A stretch of DNA of 21,002 nt from a virus, in the UHGV virus genome UHGV-0195968, one strand, 5' to 3'. Shown here in pieces: positions 2,132 through 5,493 of this stretch. Every line of letters begins with the position of its first letter. Positions within the stretch are counted from its first letter, which is position 1. The notes under the pieces are model-generated. The model was given only the letters and a program-made list of their open reading frames with translations. It was not told the origin of the DNA and ran no database searches. A program made the position numbers and the translations under genes.

Positions 2132-2702
2132 GTTTGTTGTGGTTGGCCATCACTCTCGCATAGGTCATGCGCAACGACTTGCCGCGCTGCTGGATGCTCA
2201 TCTGCTTATTGATGACGGTAACCGCGGCGCGAACTGGAATCATCGTCGCGCTATCGAATGGGCTGCTGAGCAACCTTGCCGGGTAGTGGTGTTGGAAGAA
2301 GACGCGCTTCCTGTGCAGGGCTTCACCGATAAGGTAACTGAATGGCTGGTGCGCTTCCCTGACGACATGCTGAGCTTTTATCTCGGTACCGGCCGACCGC
2401 CGCAGTATCAGAAAGAGATTGCCGGAATGCTGGTGGATGCGGATCGCGTCTGTGGTGACCACATCGTATTAAGCAAACTGATTCACGGCGTATGTTATAG
2501 CCCTCCTCGGGGAAGTTTGGCGCGCATGCTCAGTACATGGAACAAAACGCTGGCAGCTGATTACGCTGTCGGTGAGGCATTCGGTGGTCGGGTGATTTAT
2601 CCGTGTTACTCGCTGGTGGATCACGCTGACCTCCAGACGGTTGAGCGTCACCCTGACAACGAGCCGAGGACAGAACGCCGCCGCGCATGGAGGCTGGCAT
2701 AA
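2112..2702 (+). CDS. Glycosyltransferase-like protein, GT25-like (LPS-core-type GT-A) by motif pattern
   Basis: Taken from the internal ATG at 2112 (MMQTEIKFVVVGHH...) of the 2004..2702 ORF, because the upstream extension would run through the HNH-AP2 gene in another frame. Motif order resembles GT25: N-terminal beta-strand IKFVVVGH, GANWNHRRAIEWAAE, acidic VVVLEEDA. No transmembrane segment seen. The family assignment is from memory of the GT25 pattern, not from a search. Confidence 0.45.
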   Translation: MMQTEIKFVVVGHHSRIGHAQRLAALLDAHLLIDDGNRGANWNHRRAIEWAAEQPCRVVVLEEDALPVQGFTDKVTEWLVRFPDDMLSFYLGTGRPPQYQKEIAGMLVDADRVCGDHIVLSKLIHGVCYSPPRGSLARMLSTWNKTLAADYAVGEAFGGRVIYPCYSLVDHADLQTVERHPDNEPRTERRRAWRLA

Positions 2703-2746
2703 GCTGTTGTTTATCCCATCCTTCCTCACTTTGAGCACCGTTACGC

Positions 2747-3100
2747 ATGGAGACTGTCATGAACAAAGAGCCCCGCGTATATGGCAGCCGATGGGATAAG
2801 GCCCGTCTGCGTTTCCTGCAGCAGCACCCACTATGTGTGATGTGCGAGCAGCAGGGGCGGATTACCCCAGCAACGGTGGTTGACCATATCGAGCCCCACA
2901 AACTCAAAGATGCGCTTAAGTCAGGTAACCCGCTGGCCATATCGAAAGCACAGCTCCTGTTCTGGAGTAAAGAGAACTGGCAGCCACTGTGTAAAGCGCA
3001 TCATGACTCAACGAAACAGAGGATGGAGAAGAGCGGCGCGGTAATAGGCTGTGATGCCAATGGCTACCCGCTCGATCCTGCGTCTCACTGGAGCACGTAA
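2747..3100 (+). CDS. Phage HNH endonuclease, packaging-associated (HK97 gp74-like position)
   Basis: 117-aa ORF with HNH motifs VVDHIEPHK and NWQPLCKAHHDSTK and several Cys (CVMCEQ). Lies immediately upstream of the terminase genes. The true start may be the second ATG at 2759, which has GGAG upstream. Host-like GC. Confidence 0.75.
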   Translation: METVMNKEPRVYGSRWDKARLRFLQQHPLCVMCEQQGRITPATVVDHIEPHKLKDALKSGNPLAISKAQLLFWSKENWQPLCKAHHDSTKQRMEKSGAVIGCDANGYPLDPASHWST

Positions 3101-3303
3101 TGAAAGACCTCAGCATTGAATACCGCAATGGAAAATTCGTTCGCCTGGTGATTGATGGCGTGGAGATGAAGGACGTGACATCCATTCAGTTCTCGCACGC
3201 TGTAGGGCAGGAGATGCCGACGGTGACCATTTCAGGTCATGTTGTCTCCGGGCATCGGAAAGGCGATCAGAAACTCGAACAGGTAGACAAACATTCGGCA
3301 TAG
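3100..3303 (+). CDS. Hypothetical small protein (67 aa)
   Basis: ATG overlaps the HNH stop (TAATG), suggesting translational coupling. No recognisable motif, and no RBS was identified beyond the coupling. Confidence 0.35.
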   Translation: MKDLSIEYRNGKFVRLVIDGVEMKDVTSIQFSHAVGQEMPTVTISGHVVSGHRKGDQKLEQVDKHSA

Positions 3304-3486
3304 CGCGGCGGCGGCAAGTCGATTACCTATCATGTGAAATCATTTCAAATGCAACGATATCAAATGAGAATGAATCGCATCAGGGCAGGGGGGGGATCAA
3401 ATCTTCAAAACCTTTGCCCCAAATGACCGCCGCCAAAGTTTGATTTTAACGCTAACCCGATTTTTTTAGTTTTAAGGTGTTGACAT
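3304..3486. other. Putative cos / terminase-recognition region (non-coding)
   Basis: 183 bp without an ORF between the HNH-associated genes and terS. Contains four copies of (T/C)CAAAT(G/C) at 3345, 3360, 3397 and 3419; a G8 run at 3388-3395; and an inverted pair GGCGGCGG (3307-3314) / CCGCCGCC (3427-3434). In HK97-like phages cos lies between the HNH gene and terS. Confidence 0.35.
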
Positions 3487-3972
3487 ATGGCAGATAAACG
3501 AACCCGTTCCGACAGTTCGGCGGCAGCGGTTCAGGCCATGAAAAATGCAGCTGTGGACACCATCGATCCGCCGTCCCATGCAGGTTTGGAGAAAAAAGCC
3601 GAACCATTCTGGCATGACAATATCAGATCGAAAGCTCTGGACAGCTGGACGCCTGCCGACCTGCTGGCCGCCGTAGAACTGGCAAATAATCAGCTCTATA
3701 TCACCGTTTTACGCAAGGATTTACGCAAAGAAGAGCGTATACGCGGGGAGGAGCGAGACGAAGGCCTTATCAAAGACCTCCGCAAGCAAATTGTTGAGCT
3801 ACAACGAACTATCCTGGCTCAGCGCCGCGACCTCCAGATCCATTCACACGCAACCAACGGCGAAAGTCGCGACCAGAAGAAACGTAATCAGAACGATCGT
3901 GATGCACGGAATACCAAAAACGGACATCAGGACCAGGACGACAACCTGATCGCCTTTCCCAAACACGGATAA
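3487..3972 (+). CDS. terS: Terminase small subunit
   Basis: 161-aa ORF directly upstream of the large terminase gene. RBS AAGGTG 8 nt upstream. Highly charged C-terminal half. Assignment rests on position and size, typical of HK97-like packaging modules. Confidence 0.7.
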   Translation: MADKRTRSDSSAAAVQAMKNAAVDTIDPPSHAGLEKKAEPFWHDNIRSKALDSWTPADLLAAVELANNQLYITVLRKDLRKEERIRGEERDEGLIKDLRKQIVELQRTILAQRRDLQIHSHATNGESRDQKKRNQNDRDARNTKNGHQDQDDNLIAFPKHG

Positions 3973-3978
3973 ACGACT

Positions 3979-5493
3979 ATGACGCGAGGTGAGCGTGTAA
4001 TAGCGTTCATTGAGCGCTTTTGCATTGTGCCGGAAGGCAAGCTTCTCGGTAAGGCCATGCGGCTTGACCCATTTCAGAAAGAGTTCATCCTGGCGGTTTA
4101 CGACAATCCAGTCGGTACCGATAAAGCGATACTGAGCATCGCCCGCAAAAACGGCAAGACGGGGCTGATAGCCGGCATCCTGCTGGCGCACCTGGTGGGG
4201 CCAGAAGCGGTACAGAATACCCAGATCGTCAGCGGTGCTCTGAGCCGGGAGCAGGCATCTATCGTTTTCAACCTCGCGGTGAAGATGGTCAACCTGAACC
4301 CAAAATTGCAGGAGATTGTGCACATCACGCCCAGCGGCAAAAAGCTGATCGGGCTGCCGTGTAATGTCGAATATAAGGCGTTATCTGCTGAGGGTAAAAC
4401 CACACACGGACTGTCGCCTGTTCTGGCGATTCTGGACGAAACCGGGCAGGTAAGGGGGCCGCAGGATGATTTTATCGATGCGATCACCACAGCCCAGGGC
4501 GCGCATGAAAATCCGCTGCTGATAGTTATCAGCACTCAGGCGGCGAATGATGCCGATCTGTTAAGCATCTGGATTGATGATGCGGTCAAATCGAAAGATC
4601 CGCACATTGTCTGCCACGTTTACGAAGCGCCAAAAGACGCTGATATCGGTAAGCGGGAATCCTGGCTTGCCGCGAACCCGGCGTTAGGAACCTTCAGATC
4701 CGAAAAAGACATGGCGCGCCAGGCAGAAATGGCCGCGCGAATGCCGAGCTTCGAGAACACCTTCCGCAACCTCAACCTGAACCAGCGCGTTTCCACCGTA
4801 TCCCCGTTTATCTCACGTAGCGTGTGGGAGCTGTGCGGCGACATGCCGGTTAATACGCCGAGGAAGTGGTATGCAGGGCTGGACCTGTCAGCCAGGAATG
4901 ACTTAACGGCGCTGGTTATCGCTGGTGAAGCAGAGGATGGCGTCTGGGATATCTTCCCGTTCTTCTGGACGCCTCAAAAAACGCTGGAGGCACGGTCCAA
5001 AACAGACCGAGCGCCATATGACGTATGGGCCAGAGAGGGGCTTTTGCGCACCACGCCCGGCGCATCGGTCGATTACTCATTCGTGGTTGCCGATATTGCC
5101 GAAATAATCGGTGATTTCGATCTTACCTCAATGGCGTTCGACCGGTGGCGCATTGACCAGTTCAGGAAAGAGGCTGATGACATAGGCCTGAGCCTTCCTT
5201 TGGTTGAGTTCGGCCAGGGCTTCAAGGATATGGGCCCGGCAGTGGACACCCTTGAATCGCTGATGCTTAACGGGCGGGTAAGGCACGGCATGCACCCGGT
5301 ATTAACCATGTGCGCCGGGAACGCGGTGATCGTTAAAGATGCTGCCGGCAACCGTAAGCTGGATAAATCCAAAGCAACGGGCCGTATTGATGGCATGGTC
5401 GCAATGACGATGTCCGTTGGTGCTGCTAATGGGGAAGTTACCGAACAAGGTGGTGACTTCGATGACTTCATTTTCCGACCGCTGAGCATGTGA
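3979..5493 (+). CDS. terL: Terminase large subunit
   Basis: 504 aa. Walker A-like ARKNGKTG and Walker B-like VLAILDETG in the N-terminal ATPase region, with a C-terminal nuclease-like region (RIDGMVAMTMSVGA). Stop overlaps the portal start. Confidence 0.9.
   Translation: MTRGERVIAFIERFCIVPEGKLLGKAMRLDPFQKEFILAVYDNPVGTDKAILSIARKNGKTGLIAGILLAHLVGPEAVQNTQIVSGALSREQASIVFNLAVKMVNLNPKLQEIVHITPSGKKLIGLPCNVEYKALSAEGKTTHGLSPVLAILDETGQVRGPQDDFIDAITTAQGAHENPLLIVISTQAANDADLLSIWIDDAVKSKDPHIVCHVYEAPKDADIGKRESWLAANPALGTFRSEKDMARQAEMAARMPSFENTFRNLNLNQRVSTVSPFISRSVWELCGDMPVNTPRKWYAGLDLSARNDLTALVIAGEAEDGVWDIFPFFWTPQKTLEARSKTDRAPYDVWAREGLLRTTPGASVDYSFVVADIAEIIGDFDLTSMAFDRWRIDQFRKEADDIGLSLPLVEFGQGFKDMGPAVDTLESLMLNGRVRHGMHPVLTMCAGNAVIVKDAAGNRKLDKSKATGRIDGMVAMTMSVGAANGEVTEQGGDFDDFIFRPLSM

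Follow-up and report, generated by a model that had tools for sequence, protein, structure and literature searches.

Phage HK97 is an established cos packager (PMC11331095, PMC9410871), in which the HNH protein gp74 takes part in cos cleavage (PMC9410871) and the cleaved ends carry a 10-nt 3' overhang (PMC9410871, Figure 1 legend; PMC11331095). The discussion section of PMC9410871 instead gives lambda a 10-nt 5' overhang and HK97 a 12-nt 3' overhang, at odds with its own Figure 1 legend; it looks as though the two values had been exchanged. Chechik et al. (2024; PMC11331095) defined the minimal binding site of the HK97 small terminase (TerS) as positions +15 to +29 downstream of the cut, where Arg7 contacts T16, Arg128 contacts the G of base pair C:G 21, and a 9-bp A-tract is essential. 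A cos site of this type resembles lambda cos in having a staggered nicking site, a TerS site on the side that is packaged first and additional sequence upstream of the cut. The two types differ in the overhang (3' and 10 nt in the HK97 type, 5' and 12 nt in lambda), in TerS binding (one site and a ring that threads the DNA, compared with three R sites and an IHF-induced bend) and in the HNH accessory nuclease, which the HK97 type requires, unlike lambda.

Here we analysed a 21,002-nt stretch of DNA from the virus genome UHGV-0195968 (the window, whose numbering is used throughout). The region of interest is the packaging and head module of an HK97-like prophage, and Pfam and PHROGs matches give the gene order HNH endonuclease, 67-aa ORF, gap, terS, terL, portal, S78 protease and HK97-fold capsid protein. 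The gap comprises 183 nt (3304–3486), from the stop codon of the 67-aa ORF (3303), which forms its left edge, to the terS ATG at 3487. According to the ORF list it is the largest gap between plausible genes of the window, in agreement with its earlier description, made from the letters alone, as the only substantial non-coding stretch of the head module. The features of the locus are as follows.

2747–3100, + strand: HNH endonuclease, homologue of HK97 gp74, the cos-cleavage accessory nuclease (Pfam HNH, phrog_2323)
3100–3303, + strand: 67-aa ORF, function not assigned (ORF list; full-length phrog_10282 match)
3304–3333, no strand: non-conserved spacer with the left arm GGCGGCGG (homology break near 3334)
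3334–3427, no strand: candidate upstream (genome right-end) cos block, with heptamers H1–H4 and a G-rich tract at 3383–3395 (alignment of classes A and B, see below)
3428–3437, + strand: predicted cohesive end, 10-nt 3' overhang CGCCGCCAAA (record ends, HK75 annotation)
3452–3466, + strand: predicted TerS minimal site CTAACCCGATTTTTT, HK97 +15 to +29 (PMC11331095; 100% identical to HK97)
3453, 3458 and 3460–3468, + strand: landmarks of the TerS site, namely T16, C:G 21 and the A-tract
3474–3479, + strand: putative terS ribosome-binding site AAGGTG (sequence inspection; 7 nt upstream of the terS ATG)
3487–3972, + strand: terS, small terminase of HK97 gp1 type, 161 aa (phrog_5601 match)
3979–5493, + strand: terL, large terminase with ATPase and nuclease domains (Pfam TerL_ATPase, TerL_nuclease)

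The HNH protein is 98% identical to HK97 gp74 (NP_037756; 100 of 102 residues) and the window TerS is 99% identical to HK97 gp1 (159 of 161). The AAGGTG motif is invariant in the closest relatives (class A, defined below). The ATG of the 67-aa ORF overlaps the HNH stop codon (ATGA).

In megablast and blastn comparisons with phage records, the gap proved to be 95–98% identical to the corresponding regions of HK97, HK022, HK75, HK542, the mEp phages and others, the values for these four HK phages being 95.6–97.8%. Up to the ends of the HK97 and HK022 records, which fall at window positions 3437/3438, the identity is 95.6–97.0%. The position between a gp74-type HNH gene and terS, the cohesive end CGCCGCCAAA and the TerS site at +15 to +29 are the same as in HK97, HK022 and HK75. 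The differences from HK97 cos are all trivial: a run of eight rather than nine G residues, a T instead of an A at +7 (3444), the left edge of the gap (GCGCGGCGGCGGC in the window, GCGCCGCGGCGGC in HK97) and a few substitutions between H1 and H2. Since the gap is nearly identical to the experimentally defined HK97 and HK022 termini, we conclude, with a probability of roughly 0.93, that it is the cos site of an HK97-like (Hendrixvirinae) prophage and would work as HK97 cos does. The sequence-only reading, which had called the gap a likely cos site and named the HK97 cos region for comparison, was thus right about the region, the comparison giving 95–97% identity over the gap. The sequence hallmarks of an HK97-type cos were found: the HNH–terS/terL context, homology to known termini, a 10-nt 3' end, the TerS site and a TerS with an arginine clamp. 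The identity of the site, its overhang and its TerS site are established through homology to the experimental work on HK97, and cleavage of the present element in the HK97 manner is to be expected by extension, although the element could be a defective prophage. For the annotation of this prophage, the packaging site, genome ends and TerS site can be fixed to the base, and the element is placed in the best-studied 3'-cos system. The feature itself is already known: both HK97 cos and the TerS site have been published, which leaves little to be gained for biology.

The position of the cut follows from the way in which homologous genomes were deposited. The HK97, HK022 and HK75 records finish at the equivalent of 3437 (...AAATGACCGCCGCCAAA, that is ...GACCGCCGCCAAA) and restart at 3438 (GTTTGAATTTAACGCTAACCCGATTTTTTTAG, beginning GTTTGA), and in the HK75 record the last 10 nt are annotated as 'cos site'. 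The records of HK633 and of Aeromonas phage AsXd-1 stop 10 nt earlier, at the equivalent of 3427, but likewise restart at 3438, so that exactly CGCCGCCAAA is missing, as would be expected if a 3' single-stranded overhang had been removed during library preparation before sequencing. Taken together with the published HK97 overhang, the record ends, the HK75 annotation and the missing 10 nt place the cohesive end at 3428–3437, with nicks at 3437^3438 on the top strand and 3427^3428 on the bottom strand according to the homologous records. We infer the position of the overhang, and with it the bottom-strand nick, from database record ends and one annotation (HK75). Records that end at the equivalent of window position 3486 (HK542, HK544 and the mEp phages) were disregarded, being linearised just before the terS ATG and uninformative on physical ends. 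Inspection by eye detected no convincing two-fold symmetry around the nicks, and a literature search with the overhang sequence CGCCGCCAAA yielded nothing but unrelated primers. In the LMessi record (PP925823.1), the segment across the cut (equivalent to 3426–3451) is inverted, reading ...AAATG CGCGTTAAAATCAAACTTTGGCGGCG ATTTTAACGC..., which looks like an assembly artefact made at physical cos ends rather than real biology.

Two other kinds of packaging signal were considered and rejected. A pac (headful) signal does not fit, as the termini of five independent phage records all fall at one or other of two positions 10 nt apart. A lambda-type site (cosQ/cosN/cosB) does not fit either: there is a single TerS site, no repeats lie downstream of the cut and the overhang is 3' and 10 nt long. 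No sequence similarity to lambda cos was found. The IHF consensus WATCAANNNNTTR, allowing one mismatch, has 16 matches in the window compared with 13.7 expected, which is chance level, and the sole match across the cut is not conserved in HK97.

The TerS site could be transferred to the window once the numbering of PMC11331095 had been checked using the base identities stated in the paper and positions 1–32 of the HK97 record. The record has T at 16, A at 18, C at 21, T at 24–29 and ATTTTTTTA at 23–31. These bases agree with those of the paper, so that the two numberings are the same. Between +1 and +49 the window differs from HK97 solely by the A to T change at +7, and the block containing the TerS site is 99% identical across class A relatives. 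In an alignment to HK97 gp1, the window TerS retains Arg7, Ser8, Asp9, Ser10, Glu126, Ser127, Arg128 and Lys132; hence the Arg7/Arg128 clamp and its neighbouring residues are intact, as are all the DNA-contact residues named in the paper.

If the HK97 scheme, which rests on experiments with that phage, applies, a TerS ring would thread the DNA and, using the Arg7/Arg128 clamp and recognising the A-tract by its shape, lock onto 3452–3466, 15–29 bp to the right of the cut. With the help of the gp74-like HNH protein encoded just upstream, TerL would then introduce staggered nicks at 3437^3438 (top) and 3427^3428 (bottom), generating the CGCCGCCAAA 3' end, and packaging would proceed rightwards from terS. 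On reaching the following cos, the motor would stall at bound TerS acting as a roadblock and a further cut would be made. The heptamers and the G-tract would then be part of the last ~100 bp packaged into the head, and the upstream block might be read by TerL and the HNH protein or by the portal–motor complex, in analogy to lambda cosQ and the left half of cosN.

The motifs that had first drawn attention to the gap were verified directly in the sequence, and their coordinates are all exact. Four heptamers of the form YCAAATS are present, TCAAATG at 3345 (H1) and 3360 (H2), TCAAATC at 3397 (H3) and CCAAATG at 3419 (H4), together with a G8 run at 3388–3395 and an inverted pair, GGCGGCGG at 3307–3314 and CCGCCGCC at 3427–3434. 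As a null model, 5000 dinucleotide-preserving shuffles of the 183 nt were used. At least four copies of YCAAATS occurred in none of the 5000 shuffles, a figure to be read with the pattern having been picked after looking; some 5-mer occurred at least four times in 6.2% of them. On the + strand, four of the eight YCAAATS matches of the whole 21-kb window fall in the gap. The heptamer cluster is therefore marginally beyond chance. A G8 or C8 run appeared in 0.3% of the shuffles, and the G-run is non-random. Exact inverted pairs of 8 nt were seen in 34% of the shuffles, which is chance level, and comparison with relatives gave no support to the proposal that the pair flanks a functional site. The left arm is altered to GCCGCGGCGG in HK97 and absent from Fostie, LAU1, ENT39118, LMessi, mEp390 and the Klebsiella and Serratia relatives. 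In the five named phages homology begins only at ~3334 because a different upstream ORF is present (in Fostie, LAU1 and LMessi, a different ORF of 78 aa replaces the 67-aa ORF). The right arm CCGCCGCC is conserved only because it coincides with the cohesive end.

In order to compare the locus more widely, IMG/VR was scanned for AAATGACCGCCGCC; this gave ~26 true homologues which, together with the BLAST hits, fall into two classes. Class A comprises the window, HK97 and relatives, all with the HK97 right half downstream of the cut and a TerS of HK97 gp1 type. Class B comprises Klebsiella phages ST13-OXA48phi12.2 and 12.4, Serratia OS31 and IMG/VR relatives, in which the sequence to the right of the cut is TTTTTGTGCACAACCGCGAAATGAAAAG and TerS belongs to the Terminase_4 family (PF05119), with no similarity to HK97 TerS. 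The class B HNH protein is 73% identical to that of the window, whereas TerL is only 30% identical (amino acids). To the left of the cut, class B presents the same succession of elements as the window: the HNH gene, then TGAAATCATT, CAAATGA, ATTC.CATC, a G-rich tract, TCAAA..TTCA.AACC and CCCAAATGACCGCCGCC. Homology between the classes spans ~3334 to ~3436 and breaks at the cut. In Serratia OS31, at the equivalent of 3426–3437, the flanks CCGAATGAC ... GTCCTTTCTGTGCACAACCGCG are kept and CTATCACC replaces CGCCGCCA; the cohesive-end sequence may thus differ within class B. Lambda and phage 21 share cosQ and cosN and differ in cosB and in the specificity of Nu1. Classes A and B are related in a comparable way, the left half and the overhang being common while the right half and TerS differ.

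Over ~3334 to ~3436, the two classes are 63% identical in a full global alignment with gaps counted, and about 71–76% identical over the BLAST-aligned parts; for the adjacent HNH gene, identity at third-codon positions is 44%. Mean identity between the classes varies along the block as follows.

3334–3344 (TGAAATCATTT): 0.81
3345–3351 (H1): 0.36
3360–3366 (H2): 0.58
3397–3403 (H3): 0.66
3419–3425 (H4): 0.96, a value inflated by the choice of IMG/VR loci with a pattern that overlaps H4

Conservation of H1 does not extend to class B, and H2 is variable among class A members. As judged from these alignments, the heptamers are not one repeat family: conservation goes by blocks and is strongest near the cut. 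Within class A, 3421–3486 is 95–100% identical, which clearly exceeds the terS third-codon positions (75–97%), and 3333–3420 is 82–95% identical, about the neutral rate given by those positions. The best conserved part of the upstream block is 3396–3427, with 94–99% identity within class A (94–95% for 3396–3420). The G-run has 8 residues in the window, 9 in HK97 and HK022, 13 in HK75 and 5–11 in the IMG/VR relatives, always within a G-rich tract ~43–55 bp upstream of the cut; the spread in length may be either biological or due to homopolymer sequencing error.

By analogy with lambda, the upstream block may represent the nuclease-side or termination part of cos. We suggest tentatively, at a little less than even odds, that HK97-type cos is modular and that the upstream ~100 bp (3334–3427, in particular the G-tract at −55 to −43 and 3396–3427) make up a further functional half of cos, recognised either by the HNH/TerL nuclease or, in the manner of cosQ, by the terminating motor. 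The left half would then travel with the HNH gene, and the right half would come with its TerS, of which two or more unrelated families (among them HK97 gp1 type and Terminase_4) are represented; the point of exchange would be the cohesive end itself. In the literature accessible to us, we found no function assigned to the upstream block. Alternatively, the block has no packaging role and is an inherited spacer carried along with the HNH gene, the repeats and G-run being incidental, an account that we regard as possible, if somewhat short of an even chance. The latter would explain why 3333–3420 changes within class A at about the rate of the terS third-codon positions, why the length of the G-run drifts from 5 to 13 and why the heptamer cluster is only marginally beyond chance. 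It does not readily account for the 94–99% identity of 3396–3427 within class A, nor for the greater identity of the block between classes than of the HNH third-codon positions. Moreover, the block adjoins the cut in the Klebsiella phages too, although these have no 67-aa ORF between the HNH gene and cos. Together, the between-class identity above that of the HNH third positions and the retention of the block beside the cut indicate some constraint. A left half and HNH gene common to phages with unrelated TerS proteins provide a natural swap experiment on the positioning of HNH-assisted cos cleavage and on the identity of the protein that reads the upstream block.

In the sequence-only reading, the four heptamers had been taken for TerS binding repeats around a cleavage site, like the R sites of lambda cosB. 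This is very improbable, in spite of the local enrichment of the heptamer (four of eight window matches in 183 nt, four copies reached in 0 of 5000 shuffles) and the well-conserved surroundings of H3 and H4. The four heptamers are all upstream of the cut, between −93 and −13, rather than on both sides of it, and are spaced at 15, 37 and 22 nt, out of helical phase. TerS recognition had been published as lying between −80 and +472 and was later narrowed to +15 to +29; HK97 TerS needs only this single 15-bp site, which contains none of the motifs of the sequence-only reading, and shifts 21–31-bp oligonucleotides without a heptamer (PMC11331095). Class B keeps the upstream block yet has an unrelated Terminase_4 TerS. 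The variability of H1 and H2 and the 6.2% of shuffles with some 5-mer in at least four copies also argue against binding repeats.

That the gap is mainly regulatory or acts as RNA (a head-operon promoter or terminator, a structured leader closed by GGCGGCGG/CCGCCGCC, or a small ORF) is extremely improbable. The minimum-free-energy fold does pair both GC arms, and in some database records a minus-strand promoter or short CDSs are annotated in the gap. The fold of 3296–3495 is not significant, however (z-score −1.44, with 15 of 200 shuffles folding at least as well), and the structured leader was dropped. The left arm is not conserved, G-run indels that are not multiples of 3 interrupt any through-running ORF, the annotated promoter is only a consensus match with two mismatches, a promoter and terminator scan of 2700–4000 found none, and an Rfam scan of 3000–3800 at E ≤ 1 gave no match.

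With the gap read as an HK97-type cos, a few observations on the surrounding element may be added. Among 5426 complete E. coli genomes, none has an identical cos region; it is present in 12, the best match being 98.4% identical. A second, unrelated HNH protein is encoded at 1622–2131, ~1 kb upstream of the gp74-like HNH gene, and carries an HNH_3 domain and an AP2 DNA-binding domain, a combination typical of homing endonucleases. Further upstream, a 485-aa ORF at 158–1615 has only a sub-threshold Glycos_transf_2 match (19.7 bits, cut-off 23.3), and a homologue of this ORF carries a glucosyltransferase annotation in related phage records.
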